The notes under the pieces: model-generated
Told to the model about the DNA's origin: nothing
Databases searched by the model: none
Seen by the model: only the letters and a program-made list of their open reading frames with translations
Assembly (NCBI GenBank): GCA_964589975.1
Contig: CAZPVH010000001.1
Span: forward strand, 100,853-164,852
DNA: 64,000 nt
Reading direction: 5' to 3'
Source: an uncultured Candidatus Saccharibacteria bacterium
Lineage (GTDB): Bacteria > Patescibacteriota > Minisyncoccia > Phycocordibacterales > CSBR16-119
Translations under genes and position numbers: made by a program
Shown: positions 2,904 through 23,529 of the stretch, one piece after another
How the letters are laid out: the number at the start of each line of letters is the position of its first letter
How positions within the stretch are numbered: the stretch's first letter is position 1

Positions 2904-3887
2904 ATGAAAAAACTCAATAAAAAAACTCTCAAGAAGACGGTTATAGCTTTTGCTGCTGTTGTTGGGGTAGTAACTGTATTTGGAACAGTCATTTCGAGGG
3001 ATGGAATGCTGGCCCAAGTCTTTACTTCACAAACATTTCAATCGGATTTGACTTTGCAGATATCGGGCGGGGTTGAAACAAATAGCACAGGCCAAAAAGG
3101 CATAACGCTAAATAGTCAGAGGTTTGTGAGAATTATCGCTTGTTCAGCTGCTGGTGGCGGGGGCGGGGGTGATCGAGGACTTGAAGATGGGTCGAATTGG
3201 GGCTCTGGCGGCGGAGGCGGCGGAGGCGGCGGTAAAGGCAATTGTCGAACAAGAGATATGAAAGTAAGATCCGGAGATGTGCTCCGCTGGTCTGTTGGTA
3301 TGGGCGGCGCTGGTGGCACATATGGAGAGTTGAATCATTTGTTCAATCCTGATGCTCCTGGCGGTGATTACGGTATCGATTTCCCGGAAATTGATACACA
3401 TGCTACGAATGGATCCAGTGGAGGTCCAACGACAGTTGCGATCAACGGTCAGACAGTTCTATCGGTAGAAGGTGGTCATGGTGGTCAGGCGGGCACGAGC
3501 GCAAGCGGAACGTTTTCTCCTGGTTGGGGCGGTGCCGGCGGATCCCTCGATACATCTTTTCAGCAAGCATGGGGGCATAGAGGGGAAAATGGTCAGAATA
3601 CAGACGCACAGACAAATCATATGGGCAGCGGAGGCTATGGCGGAAATGGCGAAGGTCCAAATGGAATTTTGAATAACCGTGGCTACGGAGGGTCTTCATG
3701 GGGACCCGATCCATTCGGTGGCCCTGGTCTGGCCGGGGGTACCATGTCTGGCGGAGGCGGTGGCGGAGGAGGCGCTGGCAGGTGGTATGATCATCAATGG
3801 CAGACGCAGTACGAAGATACAGCGATACAGAATCGCGGCGGAATGGGCGGACCCGGTGGAAACGGTTTTATTCAGATCTATTGGTAG
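2904..3887 (+). CDS. Glycine-rich domain protein with N-terminal membrane anchor (paralog 3 of 3)
   Basis: MKKLNKK + TM segment + RDGMLAQVF. Motifs IIACSAAGGGGGG, GDVLRW, PGWGGAGGSLDT.FQQAWGHRGENGQN. The C-terminus GGNGFIQIYW is colinear with paralog 2. Confidence 0.7.
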   Translation: MKKLNKKTLKKTVIAFAAVVGVVTVFGTVISRDGMLAQVFTSQTFQSDLTLQISGGVETNSTGQKGITLNSQRFVRIIACSAAGGGGGGDRGLEDGSNWGSGGGGGGGGGKGNCRTRDMKVRSGDVLRWSVGMGGAGGTYGELNHLFNPDAPGGDYGIDFPEIDTHATNGSSGGPTTVAINGQTVLSVEGGHGGQAGTSASGTFSPGWGGAGGSLDTSFQQAWGHRGENGQNTDAQTNHMGSGGYGGNGEGPNGILNNRGYGGSSWGPDPFGGPGLAGGTMSGGGGGGGGAGRWYDHQWQTQYEDTAIQNRGGMGGPGGNGFIQIYW

Positions 3888-4007: not shown

Positions 4008-5867
4008 ATGAAAAATTTTTTGGTGAAGAGTCTGAACATTGTCACGATCTTTTCGATGGTGTTCGTTTGGAATACGGCGAATGCCGTAACGATTGATGAG
4101 CCGGTTGATACAGATATTCCTGCTTGTGAGGAGCAAACGCTTGTTAGTACTCCAGGAGAACATGGGGGCGTTGCCGTTAATCCCGAACACGGCGCTTGGA
4201 CGGCTTCTATCAGTGGGGCGGAATGGATATGGTCAGAGAATCCGATCGCCGATCCTGTTGGCGAAAGCACAGAATCTTTTACACGAGCTTTTGATATCGT
4301 AGGAACTCCGGTTGATGGAAAGCTTGAAATTGCCGCTGACAACGAATATGCGGTTTATTTGAACGGTAATCCGCTCTTTGTCGACATGAACGAAGATAAT
4401 TACAGCTCAGGCGGACAAGACGAATATGTAATTCCTGCCGCTGCCTTTGAAACTGGTGAAAATGAAATTGAGTTTGAAGTTACAAACTGGGCTCAAGAGG
4501 GCGGAACTATGGAGTCAAATCCTGCCGGACTCATGTACAAGCTCACGGTTAACTGCGCAGACGGCGGCGAAGAAGATAATTGCAATCCTGAAGAGGCAGA
4601 ATGCGAAGAAGTAGAAGATCCGACAGATCCCGAAGAAGAATCTTGTCCTATTGTCTACGCGCGCGTTCGCTTCGCAAAGGTTTCAAATGGAGCCGCAGTG
4701 AATGGCTGGAGAAATTGGGCTCCTGGCGGAGATCTTTCGAACCAGACTTTTGTTGGCGGTTCGCTGCTAGAGAATATGTATGCCGATGAAGCGTGGTTCC
4801 CGCTAACGAACCCAGACGGTTCTGTTATTGTTGACGCGGATTTAGCTCCTTACGCAGATGTTTCGGGTCTCGCTGTGGAACGCCAGAATGGTAAAGTAAG
4901 ACTTGTCCTTTATGGTAATCACAATACTGATAATAGTGAAATCGGCGGCAAGGAATTCGCCCAGGGAGTTATCGAGATCCAGGGGGCAACTTGGCAGCCT
5001 GGTATGCAGACCCCGCTTGATTGGAGTAACCTGAACACCAATCCGCGAACACATGATCCACTCATTAATGATCCAGCTTTTCCCATGGATTCACGTGGAT
5101 CATTCAATGGGTATATTAACCAATATGACTACAGGTTCGACCGTATGAGGACATGGACTCCGACTAAAGTTGAATTCCACCTGGTTGTAACGACAGGATC
5201 GGACGGATTCTATGCATCTTATGATATAAATGATGACTGCGATATTAATCAAGAGGATCCTGAAGAGCCCGTGTGTGAAATGGATTGCGAAGAAGACCCT
5301 GTTTGCGAAGAAGAGCCCTGCGACCAGGATCCTCAGTGTGAGGTAGACTGTAGTGAGCTTCCTCCTAATCCTTCTTGTGAAGAAACACAGACTTGTGAAA
5401 ATACAGAAGATAATGATCCCGAAGATCAAGACGAAGAGGAAGAAGAATCGGGTCGGAGTTTTGTTGGGGGACGCGGTTCATCTAATAACGGGGGTGGTAG
5501 CGTTTTAGGGGCCACTGACGGAGAGGTGCTTGGCGCGTGTACCCCTTTTACCGAATATCATAGAAAAGGAGATTCCGGAGGAGAGATTGCTCGCATCCAG
5601 GAATTCTTGAATGAAGAAATGGACGCAGGGCTTATCGTTGATGGTATATATGGCTCGACAACAGCAAAAGCCGTGGGCGATTTCCAGCAGAAATATTTTG
5701 AGCAGATAATTACGCCATGGGTGCCTCCATTTCTACCGCGAGTTACTCACCGATGGTACAAATCTACTCGCATGATGGCGAATGAACTTATCGGTTGTCC
5801 GGAGACAGAAGTTTATCTGGAGGACCCTGGAATCATGTATAAGGTTAAGTGGACCCCTACGGCATAA
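4008..5867 (+). CDS. Secreted acidic Cys/Glu-rich protein with a shared ~190-aa domain and a C-terminal peptidoglycan-binding (PG_binding_1-like) domain
   Basis: Signal-peptide-like N-terminus (MKNFLVKSLNIVTIFSMVFVWNTANA). Central domain is paralogous to CDS 1..639. Acidic CxxxEExC spacers (DCEEDPVCEEEPCDQDPQCEVDC). C-terminal GDSGGEIARIQEFLNEEMDAGLIVDGIYGSTTAKAVGDFQQKY fits the PG-binding helical repeat pattern. Confidence 0.65.
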   Translation: MKNFLVKSLNIVTIFSMVFVWNTANAVTIDEPVDTDIPACEEQTLVSTPGEHGGVAVNPEHGAWTASISGAEWIWSENPIADPVGESTESFTRAFDIVGTPVDGKLEIAADNEYAVYLNGNPLFVDMNEDNYSSGGQDEYVIPAAAFETGENEIEFEVTNWAQEGGTMESNPAGLMYKLTVNCADGGEEDNCNPEEAECEEVEDPTDPEEESCPIVYARVRFAKVSNGAAVNGWRNWAPGGDLSNQTFVGGSLLENMYADEAWFPLTNPDGSVIVDADLAPYADVSGLAVERQNGKVRLVLYGNHNTDNSEIGGKEFAQGVIEIQGATWQPGMQTPLDWSNLNTNPRTHDPLINDPAFPMDSRGSFNGYINQYDYRFDRMRTWTPTKVEFHLVVTTGSDGFYASYDINDDCDINQEDPEEPVCEMDCEEDPVCEEEPCDQDPQCEVDCSELPPNPSCEETQTCENTEDNDPEDQDEEEEESGRSFVGGRGSSNNGGGSVLGATDGEVLGACTPFTEYHRKGDSGGEIARIQEFLNEEMDAGLIVDGIYGSTTAKAVGDFQQKYFEQIITPWVPPFLPRVTHRWYKSTRMMANELIGCPETEVYLEDPGIMYKVKWTPTA

Positions 5868-9575: not shown

Positions 9576-9616
9576 ACATGATAGTTCCCGGAATACGGTT
9601 GAGAATTCATTTGCGA

Positions 9617-12600
9617 ATGAAGAAGCTTTTTTCGCTTGTTCTGCTTTTTGCCTTAACGTTTTCTCCATTTACCAATCCTGTTTTTGCGGCCCCCGGCGTT
9701 CCAGAAATACTTAGCCATCAGGGACGACTTCTTGATTCCTCGGGGAATTTACTGGGCGGATCTAGTGGAACAAATTATTGCTTTAGATTCTCTTTTTACG
9801 ACGATGCAACTGTGGGTGGCGGCGATGTGAAGTTGTGGCCATTAGGTACGCCGTCAACTATGACTGCAAGTGTTGTTTCAGGGGTATTTAATGTCGGAAT
9901 CGGCGATACTGGCGCTGGCGGGGACGTGCTTGATTTTGATTTTAATTCGACGGATACTGTTTATTTAAACACCGAGGTTGCAGCGCAGATTAGCGGATCA
10001 TGCTCGGGTGTTACTTTTGAGAATCTTTCTCCTCGTCAGAGAATAAATTCTTCGGGTTTTGCCATCAACGCTTCAACCGTAGGCGGCTTTACGGCTTCTC
10101 AGTCGGCCGATGGCAATGACGTTGTGGCCCTCACTTCAGATGATCTCATTTTGGGTGGAACAAATCCTGATTTTGGTGCAACGGGAACAAACACTTTGAC
10201 TCTCCAGGGCAATGGCGCGACAGGTAATATAAATTTCTTTTCCGCATCAAATTCGCTTTCTTCGGGGGGAAACCTTGATGTGGCAGGAACCCTTCAATCC
10301 GGATCGTCAAATGTCTCACTGACGCTTGCGACAGGCTTCGTCGATGCGGACGCGCTCACACTTACCGGTGCAGCCGATGGCGGAACCGGAACCTCTTCCG
10401 GTTCGGGACTTATAGCTCGAAATGACGGCATAGGACTTCTTCAGGGCTGCAGCGACGGGCAGATTCTTAAGTGGATTGAAGCTACTGATACGTGGGATTG
10501 CGCTGCGGATAATAGTGGTGGCGGACTCACAGATTCGGATTATGGAGACATTGTCGTTTCTGGTGGAGGCGGCGTTTGGACTATCGATAACGGCGTCGTA
10601 ACCTCGGCTAAAATTGCAGACAATACTATCGCTAACGCCGACCTTGCCGCAGGAACATTCTCTAGTATCACTGGCACTGGCGCTCTCGGAGCTGGCTCCA
10701 TTACATCAGGATTTGGCGCTATTGATGTGGGAGCAGACAACATTACTACAACAGGTATAGTTTCAACTGATACGCTGACGCTTACTAACACCGGCACGTT
10801 GAATGGGCTTGATGTGATTGATGCTGCGTCGGAATCTACGATCGAAGGTGCCATCGATACACTAGCCAACCTTACGAGTATCCAAGGAAATTCTTTCACG
10901 GTTTCTGGTGCCACGACAGTCTCAGGTACCAACACGGGCGACCAGACTTCGGTTACCGGCAACGCAGGCACCGTCACCTTTGCTGATGCCGGCGGTGACA
11001 CAACAACATTCGTTGCTCTTGGAACTTCCGCCACAGGATCGCTTGCGCCAGCAACCGATGCAGGACTTACTTACAATGCCACCACAAACGCTCTTACAGC
11101 AACAACCTTCGTCGGAGGTCTTACTGGTAACGTAACTGGTAATGCCGATACGGCGACAGCACTCGCAGCCAATCCATCTGATTGCGGAGCAAATGCTTTT
11201 GCCACAACTATCGCTGCAAACGGAAATCTGACCTGCGCAAGTATCACCGATGCGGATGTGCCGAATGATATAACGATCGATTTGGCTGCGCTCGCCTCGA
11301 CCGTGACCGTTGTTGACTCAACAGACGCTACCTCTTTCATTGGCATCTACGATTCAGCGACTGGATCATTGGCGCCAAAAACTGACGGAGCTCTAACTTA
11401 TAATGCTTCGACGGGAGTACTTTCGGCAACGACTTTTGTTGGCGCGCTTACCGGAGCTGCCACAGATCTAAATTGTACGGACTGCATTGGTCCTACAGAA
11501 ATAACAGATCTTACTCTTGGAACCGATACGGCAGGAAACTATGTCGCAACCGTAACAGGCGGAGCCGGCCTCACGGGATCTGGCGCTGCCGAAGGTTCAA
11601 CCCCGACACTAGCAGTTGTCTCCGGTAACGGAGGTATTATCGCTAACGCTGACGACATCACGCTTACCGTTGCGCCGTCAGCGAATGCATTATCTTCTAC
11701 GACTTCAACAGGATCCGGTCTTGAGATTCTTTCGACCGGCATCGCGCTTCTACAAGGCTGCAGTGATGGAAATATTCTCAAGTGGGTAGAAGCGACCGAC
11801 ACATGGGACTGTTCAGTCGATAATGCCGGTGGAGGATTGTCAGATGCTGATTATGGCGATATTACGGTATCCTCATCGGGTTCAGTTTGGACTATCGATA
11901 ACGGCGTCGTAACCTCGGCTAAAATTGCAGACAATACTATCGCTAACGCCGACCTTGCCGCAGGAACATTCTCTAGTATCACTGGCACTGGCGCTCTCGG
12001 AGCTGGCTCCATTACATCAGGATTTGGCGCTATTGATGTGGGAGCAGACAACATTACTACAACAGGTATAGTTTCAACTGATACGCTGACGCTTACTAAC
12101 ACCGGCACGTTGAATGGGCTTGATGTGATTGATGCGACCGGCGAAGCAACTCTCGAGGGCGCGCTCGATATTGCTGGAGATATTGACGGGACTGGTCTTA
12201 CGGCGGTGGACCTCGATGAAGCTGCCGTAGAGGCCGAACTCGAAGCAGTGCTTGATCTTGCTGATATGCAGGGCGCGGTCACAGATGCTCAGGTTCCTGA
12301 CAATATAACGGTTGACTCTGCTACCACAGCGGGAACAGTTACTTTTGCAGACGCCGGCGGAGATACAACGACATTCGTCGCACTCGGAACCTCTGCAACG
12401 GGTTCACTTGCGCCTGCAACTGATGCAGGTCTTACATATAACGCGACGACGAATGCGCTTACGGCAACAACATTTGTTGGAGGACTTACAGGAAATGTTA
12501 CTGGTAATGCCGATACGGCCACAGCTCTCGCGGCGAACCCAACAGACTGCGGAGCGAATACTTTTGCGACAACTATTGCCGCTAACGGAAATCTTACATG

Positions 12601-15600
12601 TGCCTCGATTTTGGATGCAGATGTACCAAACAACATCACAATAGACCTTGCAACCCTTGCTTCGACCGTAACTGTTGTAGACGGAACAGATTCGACCTCG
12701 TTCGTTGCAATATTTGATTCTGCAACTGGATCACTTGCTGCCAAGACTGATGGCGGTCTTCTTTATGATGCTTCGACAGGCACTTTGACCGCAACAGTTC
12801 TCTCGACAGACACGCTTACGCTCACTGGTACTGGAACAATCAACGGACTTGACGTGATAGACGCGACTTCGGAATCGACAATCGAAGCCGCGCTCGATAC
12901 GCTTTCGAACGTTACGACTGTCGGTACGCTCAACGCAGGCTCGATCACTTCCGGATTCGGTGCGATCGATGTTGGCACTGACAGTATTACCACCACTGGA
13001 ACTATCGGTTCAACCGGTAGTGCAAAGTTTACCGGAGACACGGCTACTCTATCGGGAGCAATTGCTGCAAATGGTGGAATCACTTTCGATAACTCTACAG
13101 ATACTTTGGGTGCTTTCACGGCGGGTGGAACTATCGATATGAATACTCAAATTCTCGCCGGTAGCACAGGTAGAATCGATTACACAAATTTTGATGTTGG
13201 CGCCACAGGAAATACGGATATCGGCGGGACAATTACAGCTGGTTCAGGAAATGAGGCTATTACTTTGTCTACGGGTAAAATAGATGCTGACGCAATAAGT
13301 CTCGTAACTGCAACAGATGGCCTTACTGGAACATCTTCAGCTTCGGGGCTTGCCACGTATTCTGACACATTGTCGCTTCTCCAAGGGTGCAGCGACGGCC
13401 AGGTTTTAGCTTGGGTGGAGTCGACTGATACGTGGGACTGTACGACAGTTAGCGCCGGTTCTGGAGACATAACTTCCGTTGGTGATGTTGCTTCGGGGGC
13501 CGCGTTTGACGGTACACAAGGCACAACGCTTACGTTTAATGACACCGATGGAGACAAGACGTTTAAATATGATACGACAAACAATTGGTTCGAGCTCAAT
13601 GATAATATCGCCATAGGCTCTGCTGGTGTTCTTATGACAGATGACGGTGACGGTGCGCTAACGCTTCTTGGTATGGGAGATGGTTCTGACGAAGATTTGA
13701 CGATAAATCTTGACGACACCTCGAATACGGTAGTGGTCTCTTCTTCAACAGGTGTCACTAATATGACATTTACATCGATCGGTGCGACGTTTGGAAGTGA
13801 CGTTACTTTAAATACTCAAAGCGACTTACGTTTGGCCGATTCAGACAGCTCGAATTGGGTGGCATTCCAGGCGCCGGCAACCGTTGGATCAAACATTACT
13901 TGGACACTTCCATCTGCTGACGCAGAAGGTTGTTTTAAATCAAATGGCTCCGGAACAGTTTCAATAGGATCTTGTGGAGATACTAAAATACAGACATATA
14001 CCGCTGATGATACGTGGACTAAACCGTCTGACGCTCTTTTGGTTATTGTCCAAGGGTGGGGCGGAGGCGGAGGCGGAGGCGGAGGAACCGGCGGCTCAAC
14101 TGCTGCTACTCGTTCTGGCGGAGGCGGAGGTGGAGGCGGCGCATATAATCAAAAAATAATTTCAGCTAGTGATCTTGCTAGTAGTGTGAGCGTTGAAGTG
14201 GGTGACGGTGGAACAGCTGGTACAGCAGGATCTAGTGGCGTCGGTGGTGTGGGAGGTTCGGGCGGAAGTACTTGTTTTAGCTCATCAGCAGCATGTGGTG
14301 GAACTAATTACTTCATTACTCGTGCTGGCGGAGGAGGTTCTGGATCTGGTACGGCAGGAAACGGCGGAGGCGGAGGCGGAGGCCTCGGTTCTGCCGGTGC
14401 TGTCGGTTCGGGCGCTACGGGAGGCTCTGGCGGTACACCAGCCGGCGCCTCAGATGCTTCTACGGATGGATTTGCGGGAGGCGGAGGAGGAAACTCAGGT
14501 ACTTCTGCTGGAGCGTCTGCCGGTAATTTGGCTGCTTGGGGCGGAGGTGGCGGGGGTGCTTCTACCACAGCGGGAGGCGCGGTTTCTGGTGAAGGAGGAA
14601 GTGCAATTCGCGGTGCCGGAGCCGGCGGCGGAGGTGGAAGTAATCCATCTGGCTGTGCTTCTTTCCGGGGAGGAGGAGACGGAGGAGCTAGCTCTTCCGG
14701 AGCATTGGGTGGCGGTGGAACAGGAGCGCTTGCGCAAGGAATAAATGGTGGTGCTGGAGCTGATAGCACTATATCGAGCCAAAATGGCGGTTCCGGCGGC
14801 GGCGGTGCGGCAAGTCATTGTTCGGGTACCGGGGGAACAGGGGGTGCTGGAGGTATTCCGGGTGGCGGAGGTGGCGGAGGCGGCGCTGGTGCGACCACAA
14901 CAGGTGGTGCCGGAGGAGTTGGTGCTCGCGGTGAATTGCAAGTCTGGACACTTCGGGGGGCGGGTGCCGACCTTGCTGAAATATATGCTACAAACGAGAT
15001 AGATATTGGTCCTGGCGATCTTGTTTCTATTGATCCAGAAATGAATGCCGGAGTCAAAAAGACTAACAAAAAATATGATCACATGGCGATTGGAGTAGTT
15101 TCAACAGAGCCGGGACTAACGATCGGTAATATGGATGAGGATCCGAATGCGTTCCAGCCAGTGCTTATTGCGCTTGCTGGGCGCGTGCCAATGAAGGTTA
15201 ATCTTGAGAATGGCCCGATTGTAAAAGGAGATCTTCTTACCCCGTCATCTGTTCCGGGTGTTGCCATGAAGGCGACAAAGGCGGGTATCGTCGTGGGTCA
15301 ATCAATGACTGACTACAACGGCGATATGCCAACGCAGATTGAATTGGGCTACGGCTATGTTGTTGCCTTTATTAAGAATGCATACAGTAATGGTTCAAAG
15401 CTTGCTGATATCTTGCCTGGACTTACGACCGCCGAAGAAGATGATATTCCGGAAGGAGATATATCTCAAACTTATCCAATAAATAGACAAGCGCTCGAGT
15501 ATTTCTTGGCTCACCGCGCGGAGCTTGGTCCGGAAACAGAACTTTCTGAAATCTATACAGATCGCCTAAGCGCCGGTCTTGAAGTCATCACTCCGACCTT

Positions 15601-16753
15601 GATTGCCGACTCTGTTGAAACTCATACCATATCATCGTCCCATGAGACCGGTGAGGTCCGTGTAGTGCTTGGCGAGACTGGTAAATTTATAATTGGTGGT
15701 GAGGTTGTTTCACTAGAAGACGATGAAGAGTCAGAATCATCTGCAAGTGTTCAAATTGATGCAAGCGGGAATGCTTACTTTGCCGGTACAGTTACGGCAA
15801 AGAATGTCGTAGCTGAAACTATTTCAGGACTTGAGGTATATACGAACAAAATTTCATCGCTCTCTGAGGCGGTTGAGACCGGATCAGCGAACAGCTCCGC
15901 GGATTTTTTGGAGCTAAATGGCAGAATTGGAACACTTGAGGAGCAGGCTGCTAACATTGCCGAGAACACGGCTGATACCCTAGAAGAAATTGAAACGGTA
16001 ATCGATGGTATTCTGGCTGGCGGTTACGCCATTAGTTTGTCAGATGTTGACATATCAGGCGCACTTAATGTAACCGAGCTTTCTACTTTGAGTGGAGGGC
16101 TTGCGGTCAATAGTATATCAGCCGTTGCGTCAGTTGACGGTCCCGAAGCGATGCTGTCTCTTATGAGCGACACAGAGTTTTTTGGTCGCCCGTACTTCAA
16201 TGCCGATACTGCAGGTTTTGCGGTGATTCTGGCTGGGGCGCGATCGGTAGAAATTTCATTTACAGAACCATACTTGACCCAACCGGTCGTGAGCGCAGAC
16301 ATATCTCTTGAACAGCAGGATGAAGAAGAGGATAATTTTGATCTAGAAGAGTCATTTTTTGCCGCGGGTATCGACTATGTTGTGACGCGTAAAAGTCCGG
16401 GGGGATTCACCATAGTTCTAAATCATCCTGCTCCTATGGATCTCAAGTTCTCTTGGATTGCCCTCGCTGTCAAAGATGCCCTAACACTTGTAAGCGAGCC
16501 ATCGGTACTAGATACCACATCTGATTTGGAAGAACCCGAACCCATGTCTGACCCAGACAATCAAGAACCTGAAGAATTATTGCCAGAAAATGAGACGGTA
16601 ATTCCTCAGGATGATGAATACGTGCCAGAAGAACTACCACCGCCAACCACTGAAACCATATCCGAAGGTGGGGAAAACCTGATTGAGGTGTCAGAACCCT
16701 CTACAGAACCTTCGGATTCAGGAGAAAGTATTATATCGGAACCACCGCTTTAA
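9617..16753 (+). CDS. Giant secreted repeat protein (2379 aa) with a signal peptide, three ~437-aa Thr/Gly/Ala-rich repeats, a C-terminal glycine-rich module and an acidic Pro/Glu tail
   Basis: ORF runs from 9578, with the likely start at MKKLFSLVLLFALTFSPFTNPVFA (9617). Repeat unit LLQGCSDGQILKW.EATDTWDC...SAKIADNTIANADLAAGTF... occurs three times. The segment at nt ~14040-14950 (LLVIVQGWGGGGGGGGG...) repeats the Gly-rich module of 759..3887. Coiled-coil-like and acidic PEEL tail. Confidence 0.8.
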   Translation: MKKLFSLVLLFALTFSPFTNPVFAAPGVPEILSHQGRLLDSSGNLLGGSSGTNYCFRFSFYDDATVGGGDVKLWPLGTPSTMTASVVSGVFNVGIGDTGAGGDVLDFDFNSTDTVYLNTEVAAQISGSCSGVTFENLSPRQRINSSGFAINASTVGGFTASQSADGNDVVALTSDDLILGGTNPDFGATGTNTLTLQGNGATGNINFFSASNSLSSGGNLDVAGTLQSGSSNVSLTLATGFVDADALTLTGAADGGTGTSSGSGLIARNDGIGLLQGCSDGQILKWIEATDTWDCAADNSGGGLTDSDYGDIVVSGGGGVWTIDNGVVTSAKIADNTIANADLAAGTFSSITGTGALGAGSITSGFGAIDVGADNITTTGIVSTDTLTLTNTGTLNGLDVIDAASESTIEGAIDTLANLTSIQGNSFTVSGATTVSGTNTGDQTSVTGNAGTVTFADAGGDTTTFVALGTSATGSLAPATDAGLTYNATTNALTATTFVGGLTGNVTGNADTATALAANPSDCGANAFATTIAANGNLTCASITDADVPNDITIDLAALASTVTVVDSTDATSFIGIYDSATGSLAPKTDGALTYNASTGVLSATTFVGALTGAATDLNCTDCIGPTEITDLTLGTDTAGNYVATVTGGAGLTGSGAAEGSTPTLAVVSGNGGIIANADDITLTVAPSANALSSTTSTGSGLEILSTGIALLQGCSDGNILKWVEATDTWDCSVDNAGGGLSDADYGDITVSSSGSVWTIDNGVVTSAKIADNTIANADLAAGTFSSITGTGALGAGSITSGFGAIDVGADNITTTGIVSTDTLTLTNTGTLNGLDVIDATGEATLEGALDIAGDIDGTGLTAVDLDEAAVEAELEAVLDLADMQGAVTDAQVPDNITVDSATTAGTVTFADAGGDTTTFVALGTSATGSLAPATDAGLTYNATTNALTATTFVGGLTGNVTGNADTATALAANPTDCGANTFATTIAANGNLTCASILDADVPNNITIDLATLASTVTVVDGTDSTSFVAIFDSATGSLAAKTDGGLLYDASTGTLTATVLSTDTLTLTGTGTINGLDVIDATSESTIEAALDTLSNVTTVGTLNAGSITSGFGAIDVGTDSITTTGTIGSTGSAKFTGDTATLSGAIAANGGITFDNSTDTLGAFTAGGTIDMNTQILAGSTGRIDYTNFDVGATGNTDIGGTITAGSGNEAITLSTGKIDADAISLVTATDGLTGTSSASGLATYSDTLSLLQGCSDGQVLAWVESTDTWDCTTVSAGSGDITSVGDVASGAAFDGTQGTTLTFNDTDGDKTFKYDTTNNWFELNDNIAIGSAGVLMTDDGDGALTLLGMGDGSDEDLTINLDDTSNTVVVSSSTGVTNMTFTSIGATFGSDVTLNTQSDLRLADSDSSNWVAFQAPATVGSNITWTLPSADAEGCFKSNGSGTVSIGSCGDTKIQTYTADDTWTKPSDALLVIVQGWGGGGGGGGGTGGSTAATRSGGGGGGGGAYNQKIISASDLASSVSVEVGDGGTAGTAGSSGVGGVGGSGGSTCFSSSAACGGTNYFITRAGGGGSGSGTAGNGGGGGGGLGSAGAVGSGATGGSGGTPAGASDASTDGFAGGGGGNSGTSAGASAGNLAAWGGGGGGASTTAGGAVSGEGGSAIRGAGAGGGGGSNPSGCASFRGGGDGGASSSGALGGGGTGALAQGINGGAGADSTISSQNGGSGGGGAASHCSGTGGTGGAGGIPGGGGGGGGAGATTTGGAGGVGARGELQVWTLRGAGADLAEIYATNEIDIGPGDLVSIDPEMNAGVKKTNKKYDHMAIGVVSTEPGLTIGNMDEDPNAFQPVLIALAGRVPMKVNLENGPIVKGDLLTPSSVPGVAMKATKAGIVVGQSMTDYNGDMPTQIELGYGYVVAFIKNAYSNGSKLADILPGLTTAEEDDIPEGDISQTYPINRQALEYFLAHRAELGPETELSEIYTDRLSAGLEVITPTLIADSVETHTISSSHETGEVRVVLGETGKFIIGGEVVSLEDDEESESSASVQIDASGNAYFAGTVTAKNVVAETISGLEVYTNKISSLSEAVETGSANSSADFLELNGRIGTLEEQAANIAENTADTLEEIETVIDGILAGGYAISLSDVDISGALNVTELSTLSGGLAVNSISAVASVDGPEAMLSLMSDTEFFGRPYFNADTAGFAVILAGARSVEISFTEPYLTQPVVSADISLEQQDEEEDNFDLEESFFAAGIDYVVTRKSPGGFTIVLNHPAPMDLKFSWIALAVKDALTLVSEPSVLDTTSDLEEPEPMSDPDNQEPEELLPENETVIPQDDEYVPEELPPPTTETISEGGENLIEVSEPSTEPSDSGESIISEPPL
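10574..10824 (+). repeat. 251-bp exact intragenic direct repeat (copy 1; copy 2 at 11885..12135)
   Basis: gtttggactatcgataacggcgtcgtaacc...cttgatgtgattgatgc is identical in both copies, offset by 1311 bp. The flanking repeat sequence is only ~80% identical at nt level, with mostly synonymous changes. Confidence 0.85.
11885..12135 (+). repeat. 251-bp exact intragenic direct repeat (copy 2)
   Basis: Identical to 10574..10824. Confidence 0.85.
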
Positions 16754-16761
16754 TTTTCAAC

Positions 16762-16789
16762 TTGTTTTTGCGTGGCGCGTACTTATAAT
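16762..16789 (+). promoter_or_regulatory. Candidate promoter
   Basis: TTGTTT, 16-bp spacer, TATAAT (16784-16789), upstream of CDS 16825. Confidence 0.3.
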
Positions 16790-16824
16790 ATAGGGGTCAG
16801 CAATTAGCTAAACATTAAAATATT

Positions 16825-17307
16825 ATGCCAAAAGAATCAGTAGAAACTTTGTCTTCAAGAACAGCGGTTAAAAAATCTGGTAATGCTATGAATAAAGTTC
16901 TCGGGGCGATCGTCATTATCCTTGGAGGTCTTGCCTTTTATTTCTATATGCAATACAGCAACTTGCAAGAAAATCCCAGCGCCGACGCTGAGGCGGAGGT
17001 AAATGAATTAGTTGCCCAGGTGGGAAAATTGATTGTTTTGCCGGAGGAGAGGCCGACGGTTGCAACTGTGACAGACGTAGAGAAGCTTAAAGATCAGCCA
17101 TTTTTCGCTAAGGCCAAAAATGGAGACAAGGTGTTAATATTTACGCAGTCAAAGAAGGCTATACTTTTTGATCCGGCAGCTAATAAGATAATAGAAGTTG
17201 CGCCAATAAATATAGGCGATTCGGCCAAGACCCAGGTCAAGGCCGCCCCAGTCGCGCCTGCACCAGCGCAGAGTTCCGAGTCTGAGACAACAAATACAAA
17301 TCCATAA
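16825..17307 (+). CDS. Hypothetical membrane-anchored protein
   Basis: 160-aa ORF with one TM segment (VLGAIVIILGGLAFYFYM), possibly starting at the internal MNKVL. No family recognised. Confidence 0.5.
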   Translation: MPKESVETLSSRTAVKKSGNAMNKVLGAIVIILGGLAFYFYMQYSNLQENPSADAEAEVNELVAQVGKLIVLPEERPTVATVTDVEKLKDQPFFAKAKNGDKVLIFTQSKKAILFDPAANKIIEVAPINIGDSAKTQVKAAPVAPAPAQSSESETTNTNP

Positions 17308-17317
17308 ATCTTAATCG

Positions 17318-17347
17318 CACGAGCCCCAGTGGGGGCTTTTGTGTTAA
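17318..17347 (+). terminator. Rho-independent terminator
   Basis: gagcccc-agt-gggggct followed by TTTTGTGTT. Confidence 0.6.
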
Positions 17348-17356
17348 AATATTTAT

Positions 17357-18661
17357 ATGTATAAGAGTTTTTCCTCTGCTCTCAAAATTGGCATTTTATT
17401 TTCTATTTTCGCGATTTCTTTTGGAATTGCTTTGGCGGCAGATTTTACAAGTTCGAGCTTTATTGTGCGCGATCCGGTTATTTTGTCTGGCTCGGGTTAT
17501 TCTTCAAGCGCAAGTTTTCAATATTTCGGAAGCCTCGGTCAGACTGCGATCGGCGCTTCGGCAAGTGGCGGTTTTATTGAGCGTTCAGGATTCTTGTATT
17601 TCTCGGTGGTGACTAGTCCAGTTCTTTCGGGTACGGCTGGAAATGCGTCGGTGTCCCTTTCTTGGACCGCTTCTAATGCTAGCCTCGGTCACACTGTTAC
17701 ATCGTATGAGGTTGGCGTTTCTAGCACGTCTGGCTCGGGGTACTCGTATACAAATGTTGGGAATACGCTGTCTTCTAGCCAGACCGGTCTTTCAAACGGG
17801 ACTACATATTATTTCATTGTGAGAACTCTCGACTCGTTAGGAGATGTGATAGCCACATCAAATGAGGTATTTGCTACGCCGACTGCTACTGGTGGCGGAG
17901 GTGGCGGAGGAAGTGGCGGTTCGTCAACTGGAGTCACTTTCTCAGGGTATGCGTTTCCACTTAGCGAAGTTACGATATTGAAAGACGGAGTAGTATCGCT
18001 TAAAACCATTGCTGGCGGTGATGCTAGGTTCTCAGTTCGACTTTCTCGCCTCGATTCCGGATCGTACAATTTTGCTGTTTATGGCACAGACAAAGATGGT
18101 CTGAAATCAACTTCGTTCAGTTTTCCAATAACTATCAATGAGGGCGATTCGGCGACCGTCTCTGGAATATTCCTAACACCGACTATAGAAGTTGATCTGG
18201 CTCAGGTTCGCAAAGGAGACGATATTGTCATATTCGGACAAACAACGCCAGAATCTGAGGTTACTATTGAGGTTAATTCCGAAACGCCGCATTTTGCTGA
18301 AACAGAGTCAAATGACGATGGGGTGTATCTTTATAATTTCAACACCGCACCGCTCGAGATGGGAAATCATAATACTAAGTCAAAATCGCTGCTCGATAAT
18401 GGTCAATCTTCCGGATACGGCAGACAGGTGGCGTTCGTCGTTGGAACAGAAAACATTCCGAAGGAGATTGACACAGGGTCATGCAATGCGGATTTGAACT
18501 CCGATGCAAAAATTAACCTAGTCGATTTCTCAATTGCCGCTTTTTGGTACACGAAAACACTTACCGGAGATATTGTTTCAAAAGAAGCTGACTGTTTGAA
18601 TGGTGATGGCGTCATCAATCTGGTCGATTTCTCGATAATTGCTTATTACTGGACAGGATAG
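17357..18661 (+). CDS. Secreted protein with fibronectin-III-like domain and a C-terminal type-I dockerin module
   Basis: Signal peptide (ILFSIFAISFGIALA). VSLSWTAS...YEV...TYYFIVRT is FN3-like. The C-terminus has two canonical dockerin Ca-binding segments: DLNSDAKINLVDFSIAAFWY and CLNGDGVINLVDFSIIAYYW (D/N at 1,3,5,9,12 plus a hydrophobic helix). Confidence 0.75.
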   Translation: MYKSFSSALKIGILFSIFAISFGIALAADFTSSSFIVRDPVILSGSGYSSSASFQYFGSLGQTAIGASASGGFIERSGFLYFSVVTSPVLSGTAGNASVSLSWTASNASLGHTVTSYEVGVSSTSGSGYSYTNVGNTLSSSQTGLSNGTTYYFIVRTLDSLGDVIATSNEVFATPTATGGGGGGGSGGSSTGVTFSGYAFPLSEVTILKDGVVSLKTIAGGDARFSVRLSRLDSGSYNFAVYGTDKDGLKSTSFSFPITINEGDSATVSGIFLTPTIEVDLAQVRKGDDIVIFGQTTPESEVTIEVNSETPHFAETESNDDGVYLYNFNTAPLEMGNHNTKSKSLLDNGQSSGYGRQVAFVVGTENIPKEIDTGSCNADLNSDAKINLVDFSIAAFWYTKTLTGDIVSKEADCLNGDGVINLVDFSIIAYYWTG

Positions 18662-18662
18662 T

Positions 18663-19541
18663 ATGAAATATATCTACAGGATAACTATTATTTGCGCTTT
18701 GCTTCTTCTTTCAAATTCGGTTTTTGCCGGAACGGTAGCGATTACTAAGCTTCTACCGGCAACCAACGACTTAAAGGTTGGGGACGAGGTATTGATTGAG
18801 CTTGATCTGGTCTCTGGCGGGACTCAGTATAATGCTATCGAGGGTTCGCTTTTTGTCTCGCCAATTTTCGAGATCAATAAAGTCATAACCGGCAACTCTT
18901 TTGTCTCGGTTTGGTTAAATAGTCCATCAGTTTTTGAAGGAAATACGATTAACTTCTCTGGCATAGCTCCGGCGGGATACAACAAAGAAGTCGGCCCGAT
19001 ATTTTCGCTTATCTTGTTGTCAAAAGATGTTGGATCCGGAACCGTTGCTCTTAAGAACGTAGGAATTTTTAAGAATGACGGCCTCGGTACAAGAGAAAAT
19101 ATCGCCGAAAAGTCATTTGCTCTTTCTGTTAGGGCCGCGACAGAAGACGAGATCCCATATCTGGTGAGCGTGAAAGATGAGACACCACCAGAAGAATTTA
19201 ACATAGAGCTTGTTAAAGACCCCGGATTATACGGAGGTTGGTATGCCATCGTTTGGAGCGCACTAGATAAAGGATCTGGTATTAAGTCGTACGATGTATT
19301 GGAGGGCCGACGTGTTTTTAAACAGGCAGAGAGCCCGTATGTCTTGGAGAAACAGTCATTAGGTGGGAAAATATATGTTAAGGCATACGACTATGAGGGC
19401 AATGTCCGTACGGCGGTATTTACGCCTCCTGGCAAGTTCTGCGCTGGTGATTCATGCTTCGGCAGGGGGTATGTGGCGGGTATGGTTATTATCGTTGTGG
19501 CGGGTATCTATCTTATATGGCGAAAAAAGAAACGCGCATGA
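18663..19541 (+). CDS. Membrane-anchored cohesin-like domain protein (scaffoldin-like), 292 aa
   Basis: Signal peptide MKYIYRITIICALLLLSNSVFAG. GTVAITKLLPATNDLKVGDEVLIELDLVSGGTQYNAIEGSLFVSPIFEI...VALKNVGIF fits the cohesin beta-sandwich pattern. C-terminal TM plus KKKRA stop-transfer. The start follows the upstream stop by 1 nt. Confidence 0.55.
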   Translation: MKYIYRITIICALLLLSNSVFAGTVAITKLLPATNDLKVGDEVLIELDLVSGGTQYNAIEGSLFVSPIFEINKVITGNSFVSVWLNSPSVFEGNTINFSGIAPAGYNKEVGPIFSLILLSKDVGSGTVALKNVGIFKNDGLGTRENIAEKSFALSVRAATEDEIPYLVSVKDETPPEEFNIELVKDPGLYGGWYAIVWSALDKGSGIKSYDVLEGRRVFKQAESPYVLEKQSLGGKIYVKAYDYEGNVRTAVFTPPGKFCAGDSCFGRGYVAGMVIIVVAGIYLIWRKKKRA

Positions 19542-21085
19542 CAAAATTTAAAAAAGTGTTTGCTGGCGCCTTTGTGCTGTTTTTCTTATTGACAAGCAAT
19601 GTCGAGGCAGCAAGCCTTTCTTTCACGCCTGCAGCTGGGACCTATGCCGAAAATGCTTCTTTCTCTGTCGGCGTGTATGTCGGAAGCTTGGATAAGTCTA
19701 TGAATGCAGCATCAGGGACGGTAACTTTTCCAACGGATAAGCTTCAAGTGGTATCCCTCTCTAAAGCGAACTCAATAGTAGATTTCTGGGCGCAAGAGCC
19801 TTCATTTTCAAATACCTCTGGCACTATCAAGTATGAAGGCGTGGTATTGCCGCCGGGATTCCAAGGGGGCAATGGGCGTATTATTACTATAAATTTCAAA
19901 GGTAAAGCGTCTGGAGTCGCTGAAATTAAAACTACGGGTGGCCAGGTTCTTGCAAACGATGGTGTGGGCACGCCGATCCTCTCTACTTCGACAGGAGCTG
20001 TTTTTACAATAAAGAAAGCTGAGCCCTCGGCGCCAGAGGTTATTGACCTGGAGGAAGAAATTCCGATAGACGAAACGGTTCCAATAATAGATGAAAAAAC
20101 CTCTTGCGACACAGATTCCCTTATTTATTCCACAACACACCCGGGTCAGATTTGGAGAAAAGAAAATACTGCCGCATTTTCATGGGACGTGACAGAAGAT
20201 GTGGTTGCAAGTAGGACGGCGTTCGACAAGAGTCCGAACACAGAACCAAATGTATTATCAAAGCCAGCCATTGTTGAGAAGAAATATGAAAATATTGAAG
20301 ATGGAACTTGGTATTTCCATCTATCGCTTCAGGACAATGAAGGATGGTCAAAGACTGAACATTTCAAGATTCAAATAGATCAGACCGCGCCAGAATTGAT
20401 CCTTAGTGAAGTCTCAAGGCTAGATCTGACCAACCCAAAACCCATAATTGATCTTGAGATTAAAGACAATATTTCGTGCGTAAAGAACTTTTCAATAAAT
20501 ATTGACGGAAAAGAGGTTGATTGGAATAAGCTACCGAATGGTAATTATGAGCTTGAAACAATTGAGCCTGGAAGTCATGAGCTTTCCGTTATTGTTTATG
20601 ATAGGGCGGGAAATCAGAACGAAGCTTATATTGACATAGAGGTGGCGGCCCTTGACTCGCCAGTCGTGAAAGAATATCAACAAACCGTTCCTAGTGCGGG
20701 AGAGCTTGTGGTTCGCGGCGAAACGATCAAGGGAGCAAATTTAACCGCAAAGATTACAAATAGAAAGAACAATTTTGTTGCGCGAGAGGATTTTCAATCT
20801 GGTTCTGGTAAATGGGTTTGGACTCCCAACTCAAAACTTCGTGGTGGTAACTATTTGATATCTTTCAGGGTCTCTGACTCTCGTGGCGCATCGTCAAATT
20901 GGACCGAGCCAATAGAGGTTCGAGTCGGTGGCGGTATTAATATCGATCTAACAGGTCTAGTAAAAAAGATTCCACCAGAGATTGCAATATTCGGTCTGAT
21001 TGTCGTTGGAATTTTTCTGATTGTCTTCATTACTCGAGCAGTTACAATGCGCGCTATTCGAAGGCGCAATGAGGATTGGCAGTAA
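19538..21085 (+). CDS. Membrane-anchored cohesin-like plus Ig-like domain protein, 515 aa
   Basis: ATGA start/stop overlap with the upstream gene. Signal peptide MTKFKKVFAGAFVLFFLLTSNVEA. ASLSFTPAAGTYAENASFSVGVYVGSLDKSMNAASGTVTFPTDKLQVVSLS... is cohesin-like. Downstream beta-rich repeats. C-terminal TM (IAIFGLIVVGIFLIVFI) plus RAIRRR. Confidence 0.55.
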   Translation: MTKFKKVFAGAFVLFFLLTSNVEAASLSFTPAAGTYAENASFSVGVYVGSLDKSMNAASGTVTFPTDKLQVVSLSKANSIVDFWAQEPSFSNTSGTIKYEGVVLPPGFQGGNGRIITINFKGKASGVAEIKTTGGQVLANDGVGTPILSTSTGAVFTIKKAEPSAPEVIDLEEEIPIDETVPIIDEKTSCDTDSLIYSTTHPGQIWRKENTAAFSWDVTEDVVASRTAFDKSPNTEPNVLSKPAIVEKKYENIEDGTWYFHLSLQDNEGWSKTEHFKIQIDQTAPELILSEVSRLDLTNPKPIIDLEIKDNISCVKNFSINIDGKEVDWNKLPNGNYELETIEPGSHELSVIVYDRAGNQNEAYIDIEVAALDSPVVKEYQQTVPSAGELVVRGETIKGANLTAKITNRKNNFVAREDFQSGSGKWVWTPNSKLRGGNYLISFRVSDSRGASSNWTEPIEVRVGGGINIDLTGLVKKIPPEIAIFGLIVVGIFLIVFITRAVTMRAIRRRNEDWQ

Positions 21086-21097
21086 TCTCCAAAAGAA

Positions 21098-21128
21098 ATA
21101 GCGCCATCACTTTGGATGGCGCTTTTCA
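21098..21128. terminator. Rho-independent terminator, hairpin usable on both strands
   Basis: agcgccatc-actttg-gatggcgct followed by TTTTCAAT on the plus strand. The reverse strand has a T-rich tail as well. Confidence 0.6.
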
Positions 21129-21558
21129 ATACCTGGTTCTGCGCACAGATCTTGTTCGAAGAAGTGTCATAGGGGTTCGCCGTCCCGATGACTATTATGG
21201 CTACAAGATTTGTAACGCAGAACCGGAGCTTTGTCGGCCCCTGCATTATCTTTATTCCAAACCAGAGGAGGAGACGAACCCGGGCGGCCAATGGTTCCAC
21301 TTTTGGGTCGTTTTCCCATTTAGCAGGCCACGGGTCGTCTACCACCTATGTGTATGGAATTTTCTTCGAAGGAACGAATGAACGTATCATAACAAATCTA
21401 TGGCCACTGTCAAATTTGGTATCTTTAATGAAAAAACCCTTATTTTTAGGGCTTTTTTAGTTGTGGTTAAATTACAAAAACTATTAATAGCTAATTATTT
21501 ATTTGATATTCGAGTGCCGTGATAAAATTTGACGAGCGTTTATTAATTAGCAAATGCA

Positions 21559-23529
21559 ATGATGAAAAGTATACTTTGGGGTCTTGGTTTGTTTGTGGCG
21601 GCATTGCCTACTATGGCAAACGCCTTCACGACAACCTATAATTATTCACCTGATTTTTTGGAAGATTTACCGTACAACATGACCTTAGTCCGTGGTGGAA
21701 CGGTGTCTGTTTTAAACGACGCAACTCTTGGAAAAGCTATTCAGATAAAATCTCCAACAGCTTCAACAGACATCATGTTTGACAATGTTCCCCTCACTTC
21801 TTCATGGTTAGATGCAAATTTCAAAATCAAAGGCGGAACTGCAGCAACCACAGATAAACCAGGAATATTGGTTTTCTCAAACGCTGATGCCACGAGCGGA
21901 TATTTTGTTCGTTGGGATAATAACTCAGATGATAAAGTTAGAATTTTCAAGCGTTCTCCGTCCGGCGCAACTTATACGAACACAGAGATCGCAGTTACTA
22001 CATCTTTTCCAACGACGACCGGGCGTCTTTGGCGTGTAACAGCTTCATCAGCAGGCGGAGTGGCAACAATTACTGCTTATAGATGGAACGGCACCGCTTG
22101 GGTTCAATTTCTTCAGGCTGTGGATTCGACATCTCCGTATCTTGCGGGAGGGATGGCGATTTCCCAGACTCAGATCAACTCGACGCTTGTTATGGACAAC
22201 TTCATAATTAATTTCCCTGATACTGATACGATCGGCGTCTCTACACCAGACTCTTATCAAGTTTTTCAGCGCAATGGGTCAAATCTTTCGGATATGCATA
22301 TTTTTGGCAGGTATACAGGTAATGCAACAGCCATAGAAGCTAGTTTTAATGGTGGGGCATACCAGACGATCGACTCAGTTCTAACTAACGGTTTCTATGA
22401 TGGTATCTTGACTGCTCAGGCCGCAGGGCAAGGGGACCTTGTTGTTAGGTTCACAAATAATACTTCTGTGTCGACAACAGTTCCGCTTGTTGGAGTCGGC
22501 GATGTTTTTATCGTCGCTGGTCAGTCAAATGCTGTCGGTCGAGGACAAAATCCTCAGAGTTATTCTCATCCGACACTAAAGGCCTCTGTCTTCAGGGCTG
22601 ATGATGCCTGGAGAGAGCTTACCGATCCTAGCGACATATTCACTGATCAGGGATCTGCTTGGCCGCTTGTTGCGACATATGTGATGGACTCACAAGAGGT
22701 TCCGGTCGCATTCCTTACAACTGCGACAGGCGCGACAGGCTTGGTTAGTCCTCAGGATTGGAAAAAGAATGGTACTGGTCAAAAGCGTTATGAAGCTGCG
22801 CTCCTACGAGTTCTTAGGTCGCACATAAATAGCGCAAAAGCAGTCTTGTGGTATCAGGGAGAAACAGATGCTGGTGGAGGCGTGAGCCGTTCGAATTATT
22901 TAGCTGGACAGCAGGCTCTAACAAATAATTTTGCAACGGATATTGCCGGTGCCCCAAAGACAATTATTGCAAGCTTGAGTCAGATAAATAAGCCAGGAAC
23001 AACTGAGTTAGAATTGGATACCATTCGTCTCTCGCAGCAGGACGCTTGGAATAGTGGAGGCAACAATCTTTATGGTCCAGTTCTTTATGATTTGGGGCCG
23101 CATGCAGATGGCGGACACATTTATACCGATAGCGACATGCAGAAGCTTGCTGCTCGATGGTGGTCTGCGATTGAAAAACATTATTATAGCGGACCAGATG
23201 GGCGCGGACCGATTCTCTCGAGTGCCGTATACACAACAGCCACGAATGAACTTGTCCTCACGTTTGCAGATGATACGCTGCCGCTCAATACAACGGTAGA
23301 TAAAGAAACATTTGTTTTGAAGCAGGGGGGCGTGGTGATGACAATCGGAAGCGTTTCTGTAACAGCTTCAAACCAAGTTACGATTACGCCTTCGACCAAT
23401 CTTTCGGGGCCTATAACTATCTCTGTTGGTTCTGGTAATTCTCCATCGGGCAAAAATGCAGTTCGTGATACCTCTGCAAATAGTCTGCCGGCAGAAACCG
23501 TGGTAGATGCGGCTGTGACAATTATATAA
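21559..23529 (+). CDS. Secreted SASA-family (sialate O-acetylesterase-like, SGNH-type) carbohydrate esterase with an N-terminal beta-sandwich domain
   Basis: Signal peptide (LGLFVAALPTMANA). VFIVAGQSNAVGRG matches the GQSNMxG motif and WYQGETDA matches the second SASA block. About 200 aa of N-terminal lectin-like sequence. Confidence 0.6.
   Translation: MMKSILWGLGLFVAALPTMANAFTTTYNYSPDFLEDLPYNMTLVRGGTVSVLNDATLGKAIQIKSPTASTDIMFDNVPLTSSWLDANFKIKGGTAATTDKPGILVFSNADATSGYFVRWDNNSDDKVRIFKRSPSGATYTNTEIAVTTSFPTTTGRLWRVTASSAGGVATITAYRWNGTAWVQFLQAVDSTSPYLAGGMAISQTQINSTLVMDNFIINFPDTDTIGVSTPDSYQVFQRNGSNLSDMHIFGRYTGNATAIEASFNGGAYQTIDSVLTNGFYDGILTAQAAGQGDLVVRFTNNTSVSTTVPLVGVGDVFIVAGQSNAVGRGQNPQSYSHPTLKASVFRADDAWRELTDPSDIFTDQGSAWPLVATYVMDSQEVPVAFLTTATGATGLVSPQDWKKNGTGQKRYEAALLRVLRSHINSAKAVLWYQGETDAGGGVSRSNYLAGQQALTNNFATDIAGAPKTIIASLSQINKPGTTELELDTIRLSQQDAWNSGGNNLYGPVLYDLGPHADGGHIYTDSDMQKLAARWWSAIEKHYYSGPDGRGPILSSAVYTTATNELVLTFADDTLPLNTTVDKETFVLKQGGVVMTIGSVSVTASNQVTITPSTNLSGPITISVGSGNSPSGKNAVRDTSANSLPAETVVDAAVTII

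Follow-up and report, generated by a model that had tools for sequence, protein, structure and literature searches.

How might a Candidate Phyla Radiation (CPR) bacterium hold a long surface fibre on its cytoplasmic membrane? The question is raised by three adjacent genes, here called A, B and C, in a 64,000-nt stretch of DNA (the window) from contig CAZPVH010000001.1 of assembly GCA_964589975.1 (positions 100,853 to 164,852), listed as an uncultured Candidatus Saccharibacteria bacterium. CPR bacteria, or Patescibacteria, account for a large part of the diversity of bacteria and live mostly attached to other cells, and to our knowledge almost nothing has been described of their surface molecules besides type IV pili. 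An earlier note, made from the sequence alone, read the three genes as a minimal cohesin–dockerin system for docking a protein on the cell surface. The trio is real and widespread, a variant of the non-cellulosomal cohesin–dockerin anchor that is apparently undescribed. We put somewhat better than even odds (roughly 0.55) on the reading that A, B and C are joined through cohesin–dockerin pairing into a socket in the cytoplasmic membrane, by which a surface fibre or adhesin is tethered.

The three genes lie on the plus strand, at the open reading frame coordinates that had been claimed for them. Gene A (17357..18661) encodes a secreted stalk or adaptor of 434 residues with a C-terminal dockerin. 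Gene B (18663..19541) encodes 292 residues comprising a signal peptide, a cohesin, an immunoglobulin (Ig)-like domain, a Cys-x4-Cys stalk, a transmembrane helix and a basic tail, and gene C (19538..21085) encodes 515 residues in which a signal peptide and cohesin are followed by three Ig-like domains (including Big_13 and Big_9), a transmembrane helix and a basic tail. The TAG codon of A ends at 18661 and the ATG of B starts at 18663, leaving a gap of 1 nt, while the TGA of B and the ATG of C share bases in an ATGA at 19538–19541; both junctions are present in the sequence as the earlier note described them. A perfect 9-bp hairpin, AGCGCCATC-ACTTTG-GATGGCGCT followed by TTTTC (21100..21123, plus strand), stands 15 nt past the stop codon of C and is likely the end of the A-B-C transcription unit. 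Counted over the entire window, there is a single dockerin, and there are just two cohesins.

Hydropathy analysis of A identified a single N-terminal segment resembling a signal peptide (..GIALA/AD) and no other such segment. In the structural model, three dockerin helices follow a beads-on-a-string stalk in which a Gly linker joins an FN3 domain to a pair of Ig domains. Pfam and the model together place the FN3 domain at residues 90–173 and the Ig-like domains at 192–260 and 265–363 (17624..18445, plus strand, including the linker). At residues 95–171 Pfam fn3 passed its gathering threshold of 25 bits with a score of 26.1 bits, which upholds the FN3-like domain proposed ahead of the dockerin, and Big_6 scored 25.2 bits. 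When the A model was searched with Foldseek, all matches were tandem FN3/Ig stalks of the kind seen in the adhesins SiiE and MpIBP, the 57-residue dockerin being too small to rank in a search of the whole model. Neither the Pfam scan nor the Foldseek search gave A a catalytic domain. The N-terminal head of A (residues 28–87; 17438..17617, plus strand) consists of a strongly conserved motif of about 60 residues, DFTSSSFxVxDPV...SGFLYF, which is predicted to be disordered and was modelled with a predicted local distance difference test (pLDDT) score of only ~30. This motif was absent from all other proteins of the window and of the related loci in which it was sought, and is unique to A. The head may fold only upon binding, either in a complex or by strand exchange.

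The C-terminal end of A, ...CNADLNSDAKINLVDFSIAAFWYTKTLTGDIVSKEADCLNGDGVINLVDFSIIAYYWTG, contains both of the calcium-binding segments that had been quoted as a dockerin. This type-I-like dockerin occupies residues 378–434 (18488..18658, plus strand) and is made of two loop-helix repeats, DLNSDAKINLVDFSIAAFWY (residues 379–398) and CLNGDGVINLVDFSIIAYYW (residues 413–432). Two tandem loop-helix (F-hand) repeats of ~22 residues at the terminus are the arrangement by which a type I dockerin is recognised. Helices were modelled at residues 388–396, 405–413 and 422–433, with block-mean pLDDT values of 81–91 at 381–430 and 63 at 431–434. Among 80 orthologues, the loop 1 ligands D1, D5 and D12 were found in every sequence and N3 and N9 in 79, and loop 2 had N3 in 70, D5 in 78 and D12 in all 80. 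The helices of both repeats carry the pattern L-(V/I)-D-F-S-I-x-A-(Y/F)-x-x, nearly unchanged across the same sequences, which can also be written L-V-D-F-S-I-x-A-x-W/Y. Pfam Dockerin_1 matched 29 of 33 full-length A homologues at E<=0.01 (best E 3.4e-7), and several A homologues have precomputed PF00404 matches.

Hydropathy likewise gave B and C each an N-terminal signal-type segment, a C-terminal transmembrane helix and a basic tail, as had been proposed. All of these features are on the plus strand. In B the cohesin domain spans residues ~23–158 (18729..19136), and the transmembrane helix (~267–285 by hydropathy) and the basic stop-transfer tail WRKKKRA lie at 19464..19541. In C the cohesin domain spans residues ~25–165 (19610..20032), and the transmembrane helix (residues 481–499 by hydropathy) and basic tail RAVTMRAIRRRNEDWQ lie at 20978..21085. 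A model of B built with 25 homologues reached a pLDDT of 85.5 and resolved a beta-sandwich at residues 24–157, a second beta domain at 180–267 and a terminal helix at 268–291. The best Foldseek match to this model was the cohesin and FN3 pair of Clostridium perfringens GH84C (2w1n, E 1.8e-9), and further matches were to the cohesins 2vo8, 2jh2 and 2xdh, with TM-scores of 0.72–0.76; identity to the solved cohesins among the matches was 10–17%. A nine-stranded beta-sandwich (jelly-roll) of ~140 residues is the cohesin fold, and the confident sandwich model together with the best PDB matches bears out the claim that B begins with a cohesin-fold domain of ~150 residues.

The corresponding claim for C stands on its homology to B and on its orthologues. 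Alignment of C to B with hhalign gave a probability of 99.8% (E 3.8e-29) over 242 columns covering the cohesin and the next Ig domain, and by this sequence comparison C is a paralogue of B. Three C orthologues of 57–67% identity (P0041, P0043 and P0053) scored 26.0–31.8 bits against Pfam Cohesin at residues ~24–148, above the gathering threshold of 24.1. Cohesin was also matched by 20 of 37 members of the C family (best value 6.1e-9), a sample enriched for precomputed matches.

Conservation within the B cohesin is concentrated in a few elements. The mean frequency of the top residue in 78 B sequences was 0.61 in strand 3 (YNAIEG), 0.66 in strand 5 (W84, P88), 0.71 in strand 6 (FSGI..AGY) and 0.77 in the NDGxGT loop, with values of 0.20–0.47 in the remaining strands. 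C shares these motifs with B (N56-A57, W84..P88, x-E-G, P-x-G-F and NDGVGT). In solved cohesin complexes the dockerin is bound by the face formed by the 8-3-6-5 sheet. By strand order and position, compared with the Clostridium thermocellum CipA cohesin, the conserved elements of B would belong to this sheet.

Relatives of A were sought in one genome per species and were found in at least 543 species genomes. The trio is thus a widespread CPR trait, and not the unusual possession that the earlier note had expected if the organism were CPR-like. Gene order was counted in the 80 best A loci, and a search with the short form of A that Microsyncoccus, Falkowbacteria and Jorgensenbacteria have yielded a second set of 80 metagenome loci. 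B and C genes directly followed A on the same strand in 69 of the 70 loci of the first set with at least 3 kb after A, and did so in 35 of 35 such loci of the second set. The survey of related genomes that had been suggested therefore found the three genes together in 104 of 105 informative loci. Intergenic spacing in related loci mostly consists of overlaps or a few nucleotides.

Gene orders among the 80 best loci were ABC (46), ABCC (21; L018, L022, L025, L027 and 17 more), ACBC (5; L042, L068, L078, L079 and L081), AABC (1) and CABC (1). Six loci had AB or A only, and several of these are contigs that end no more than ~1 kb past A or B. Depending on the genome, a dockerin is accompanied by two to four cohesin anchors. 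A third or fourth cohesin-type membrane protein is common, in the form of two shorter C-like genes of ~375 and ~435 residues. Another gene separates A from B in few of the sampled loci, namely the C-type gene of the five ACBC loci and, in a Jorgensenbacteria locus (L006), a PDDEXK_3 nuclease-like gene at 2160..2576. The names of the metagenome-assembled genomes (MAGs) behind the 80 best loci include Magasanik-, Uhr-, Nomura-, Taylor-, Vogel-, Niyogi-, Zambryski- and Staskawicz-bacteria, Paceibacterota, Minisyncoccia and Peribacteraceae. The trio also occurs in Candidatus Microsyncoccus archaeolyticus (MCSN_0750 and neighbours), Falkowbacteria and Jorgensenbacteria. In one third-party annotation (TPA) assembly series, several MAGs with the module are titled 'uncultured Gammaproteobacteria', 'Planctomycetia' or 'Candidatus Saccharibacteria' (e.g., L010, L014, L019 and L056); such titles look like unreliable taxonomic labels and not like genuine cases of the module beyond the CPR. 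Some homologues already bear matching automated NCBI names, 'cohesin domain-containing protein' in the case of MDO8524600.1 and 'dockerin type I repeat-containing protein' in the cases of MDO8604004.1 and MBX4200198.1.

The module is not minimal, as it had been called, and extends upstream to two more plus-strand genes within 9578..17307. The first (9578..16753) encodes a giant secreted protein of 2391 residues with a signal peptide, a conserved N-terminal domain, a repetitive fibre rich in Cys pairs and Gly, and a conserved C-terminal part. Hydropathy places its only hydrophobic segment at the N-terminus, and since the giant has no transmembrane helix or wall anchor of its own, it needs an anchor. 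The second (16825..17307) encodes a small signal-anchored membrane protein of 160 residues, with a transmembrane helix at residues 25–43 and a conserved extracytoplasmic domain. Of the 67 loci that extend 3 kb or more upstream of A, 54 have a giant homologue and 48 have the small protein, at ~55% identity.

Across species the giants are most conserved in the N-terminal domain (residues ~7–196; 57–65% identity). Their C-terminal ~600 residues are 30–38% identical and contain a coiled-coil-like stretch and an H-lectin-like end, with weak H_lectin matches in 11 of 19 homologues (best E 0.001). Other giants with the same N-terminal domain have a Peptidase_S74 C-terminus (E 1e-10 and 4e-12). Searches of PDB sequences with the giant N-terminus, a profile of the giant C-terminus and the small protein found nothing significant. 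The family of the small protein is very large, counting 6017 cluster representatives (50% clustering) at E<=0.001, and eight of nine longer members have a C-terminal LytR_C domain above the Pfam cut-off. This family membership points to a general cell-envelope role for the small protein that would be wider than the module. Within the giant gene, the region 10436..13440 contains direct repeats of 286 nt at 95% identity (10574–10859 and 11885–12170) and of 300 nt at 78%, as well as three copies of the Cys-pair motif LLQGCSDG..W..TDTWDC. The Gly-rich segment of the giant also gives rise to several spurious antisense open reading frames.

A second type of module (L087–L166, L003, L005 and L006) was found in other CPR lineages. 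Its order is a large protein, a small paralogue, a transmembrane protein resembling WxLIP_PGBD, A with a Cys-rich head, B and C. The large protein may contain DUF7483, for example, and the small paralogue resembles its C-terminal domain. Here A is without the N-terminal motif and the FN3 domain and has a Cys-rich CGNxxxExGExCD head instead. The WxLIP_PGBD-like protein, whose gene lies just upstream of A, consists of a beta-domain, a C-terminal transmembrane helix and a basic tail. Against WxLIP_PGBD (PF06030) two of these neighbours scored 26.0 and 22.1 bits (E 1e-5 and 1.6e-4), below the gathering score of 27.3, and the partner proteins of this module type had no Pfam WxL domain match.

The A head and the upstream genes vary together. 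Among 68 loci whose A has the N-terminal motif and FN3 domain, as in the window, and which extend at least 3 kb upstream, the giant C-terminus was found in 49, the small protein in 52 and the WxLIP-like protein in none. Conversely, 32 loci with the Cys-rich head and the same upstream length had no giant C-terminus, no small protein and 30 WxLIP-like proteins. The constant part of the module is the Ig-Ig-dockerin portion of A with B and C, and its variable part is the N-terminal head of A, which co-varies with the genes upstream. An adaptor would be expected to vary in this way, with the dockerin end fixed to B and C and the head on a lineage-specific partner.

We hypothesize that A is exported and its signal peptide cleaved, and that it would be kept at the surface by insertion of its C-terminal, calcium-binding dockerin into the N-terminal cohesins of B and C. 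B and C would be type I single-pass membrane proteins presenting their cohesins at the far tips of Ig stalks. Through its head, A would link the B/C anchor to the giant fibre and possibly to the small protein. The job of such a system would be to hold a long surface fibre or adhesin on the cytoplasmic membrane of a cell without an outer membrane. Each near-symmetric dockerin always comes with two or more distinct cohesin proteins, which would allow a heterotrimeric anchor. A bolder version, which we offer as a tentative possibility, is that A-B-C is a universal Patescibacteria socket for interchangeable appendages, in which the nearly two-fold-symmetric dockerin would bridge two different cohesin proteins and the head would take either tail-fibre-like giants or WxL-type proteins. 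If true, this universal socket would be the long-sought physical basis by which episymbionts hold their host-contacting fibres.

Several results weigh against the membrane-socket reading. B and C themselves had no match to Cohesin (PF00963) at E<=1 in Pfam and NCBIfam scans, and a B profile searched against PDB sequences ranked cohesins at the top but at non-significant E values of 0.2–0.5. Other sequence searches were similarly sparse: B matched no Pfam or NCBIfam family at all, none of its 25 close homologues had a Pfam match, and the Pfam matches of C were of Ig type only (Big_13, DUF4625 and Big_9). Single-sequence searches of PDB sequences with B and C found no cohesin, and the C profile found Ig adhesins only (SiiE and Bap) and no cohesin. 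Dockerin_1 (PF00404) scored 18.6 bits (E 0.0022) on A, short of its gathering score of 22.9. The profile check that the earlier note had proposed thus came out divided, with no match for B and C and a sub-threshold score for A on the one hand, and on the other the orthologues of C that pass and the large majority of A homologues that match. Its description of the dockerin as 'textbook' also holds in part. Loop 1 is fully canonical across the 80 orthologues, but in loop 2 the Asp expected at position 1 is present in only 8 of 80, the residue being mostly K, R, H or Y, and Cys in the window. Loop 2 is a putative calcium-binding loop.

Weighing against the same reading, no recognisable A-binding site was found in the giant protein. 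In addition, the 49 nt that separate the small gene from A contain a terminator-like GC hairpin followed by a T-run (17321..17338, plus strand). A promoter and terminator scan counted no more sites in the region than the shuffled expectation, and for this hairpin only its position is suggestive. The hairpin suggests that the small gene and A are transcribed separately or with attenuation, and the giant and small genes, split from A in this way, may have their own transcript. Finally, A is about 45–50% identical across many CPR classes, and conservation this high would be unusual for a host-specific adhesin system and fits a housekeeping role in the envelope equally well.

The last point leads to the first alternative, in which the module is a housekeeping envelope scaffold, for example a set of struts joining membrane, wall and surface layer, and does not serve host attachment. 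The cohesin–dockerin pairing may persist under this explanation, which we consider rather unlikely. Besides the identity of A across classes, it can draw on the nearly invariant dockerin, on the surroundings of the module, where housekeeping and wall genes are found (such as those for MurJ, Mur ligases and a penicillin-binding protein), on the frequent fusion of the small-protein family to the envelope domain LytR_C, and on the existence of a module type with a WxLIP peptidoglycan-binding-like protein. The giants do not fit it well. Their C-terminal ends are variable and of receptor-binding type, either H-lectin-like or carrying the tail-fibre chaperone Peptidase_S74, and their internal repeats evolve rapidly; both traits are typical of adhesins and fibres rather than of lattice proteins.

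A second alternative retains the cohesin and dockerin folds but not their mutual binding; the cohesin-like domains of B and C would instead have another ligand, for instance a glycan, the giant or some protein of the host, and the dockerin would be a calcium-stabilised end module. The low identity of B to solved cohesins, the sub-threshold Pfam scores and the degenerate loop 2 are all in keeping with this view. Moreover, no partner is known for many non-cellulosomal dockerins (Peer et al. 2009, as cited in PMC9012536). Nonetheless, in nearly every informative locus the dockerin gene sits beside the two cohesin genes in the same orientation, often with overlaps, and the window offers the one dockerin no cohesins other than these two. 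Secreted A has no other retention signal, and the conserved positions cluster on a single cohesin face and on the two helices of the dockerin. We judge this alternative to be unlikely.

A cellulosome-like surface complex that degrades glycans is very improbable. It was suggested by the gene for a SASA-family carbohydrate esterase (21559..23529; PF03629, E 2.6e-18) located 470 nt downstream, which the earlier note had tentatively assigned to the same function. That assignment fails, as the esterase has no dockerin and no homologue of it was found within 8 kb in the 80 related loci. A hairpin and the 470-nt spacer separate it from C, A has no catalytic domain to offer as cargo, and no multi-cohesin scaffoldin is present. 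We rejected a cellulosome on the grounds that B and C have one cohesin each and the sole dockerin of the window is on a non-catalytic protein, and because synteny contradicts it. Equally improbable is a prophage or tail-fibre remnant with the giant and its neighbours as phage-derived cargo, which the tail-fibre-like giant and the Peptidase_S74 relatives might suggest, and which we rejected since tRNA synthetase, MurJ, topA and dprA genes flank the module and phage structural genes are absent, the GC content of the module, 0.42–0.53 per 2-kb block, is inside the spread of the window, and the same order is conserved across species representatives in cellular MAGs.

If the membrane-socket reading is correct, the trio would work like the anchoring cohesin–dockerin pair of a cellulosome, but it is no cellulosome. 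The single-cohesin anchors OlpA, OlpC and SdbA of C. thermocellum use SLH domains or a sortase signal, whereas the trio had no SLH or LPXTG match and B and C end in a transmembrane helix and a basic tail. The cargo of the trio is a non-enzymatic Ig/FN3 stalk, and the window has no multi-cohesin scaffoldin or carbohydrate-active enzyme bearing a dockerin. Its host is a non-cellulolytic CPR bacterium, and two different cohesin proteins always accompany each dockerin. The nearest structures are the non-cellulosomal cohesins of C. perfringens (GH33 NanJ, 2vo8, and GH84C NagJ, 2w1n) and Archaeoglobus fulgidus (2xdh). Those are modules of secreted enzymes or toxins, whereas the cohesins of the trio head non-catalytic membrane-anchored proteins and are encoded in a conserved operon with a presumed dockerin partner.

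The nearest ecological parallel is found in anaerobic methanotrophic (ANME) archaea, which are likewise non-cellulolytic and contact-dependent, and whose dockerin and cohesin proteins are predicted to form extracellular complexes of uncharacterised function (PMC9012536). The ANME proteins are variable, often multi-cohesin and not described as a fixed operon (PMC9012536), whereas in the CPR both the order and the make-up of the trio are fixed. Eukaryotic TMEM132 proteins (PMC6030884) have the same build as B and C, with a cohesin-like domain, Ig domains, one transmembrane helix and a short cytoplasmic tail; they have no dockerin partner, and the likeness is architectural only. The gene upstream of A in the second module type resembles the WxLIP_PGBD part of the WxL/WxLIP (DUF916) clusters of Firmicutes. 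It differs from these in its sub-gathering scores and in having no WxL partner domain, and loci of the window type do not have the gene at all (0 of 68).

Phage fibres are attached at their N-terminus. The giants share with phage tail fibres and tailspikes a conserved N-terminus and a variable C-terminal tip, and some relatives end in Peptidase_S74. Unlike a phage fibre, the giant of the window is encoded in a chromosomal, housekeeping context without baseplate genes and has an H-lectin-like rather than an S74 end.

A literature search, to which most subscription journals were outside the scope, found no paper linking cohesins or dockerins to CPR lineages or describing the operon, and the Microsyncoccus paper with its supplements does not mention the module. 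The module is one of few multi-gene surface systems conserved across many CPR classes. With it, cohesin–dockerin pairing would acquire a new use beyond polysaccharide degradation, as an anchor that is fixed in the membrane, has no enzymatic part and is encoded in an operon. Its architecture of one dockerin, two membrane cohesins and a lineage-dependent partner is testable, and the module is found in lineages with enrichment cultures, such as Candidatus Microsyncoccus archaeolyticus.

Several observations concern the sequence around the module. In the closest relative, topA directly follows C. The spacer between C and the esterase gene in the window (21086..21558, 470 nt) is unusually long for a compact genome and contains, besides the hairpin at 21100–21123, a second stem with a T-run near 21465–21490 and a promoter-like site with 11 of 12 matching positions on the minus strand (21413–21386). 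Rfam searches identified only a tRNA-Gln and nothing in this spacer. Near the start of the window, three tandem genes (759..1754, 1874..2839 and 2904..3887) encode paralogues of ~325 residues that are 47–55% identical, each with an N-terminal hydrophobic segment. They have no Pfam match and contain long poly-Gly stretches like those in the Gly-rich part of the giant. The gene at 4008..5867 encodes a secreted protein of 619 residues, rich in Cys and acidic residues, with a weak PG_binding_1 match. The 168-residue product of 133..639 is 50% identical to residues 263–413 of that protein and, judged by this identity, looks like a partial duplicate or a domain common to surface proteins.

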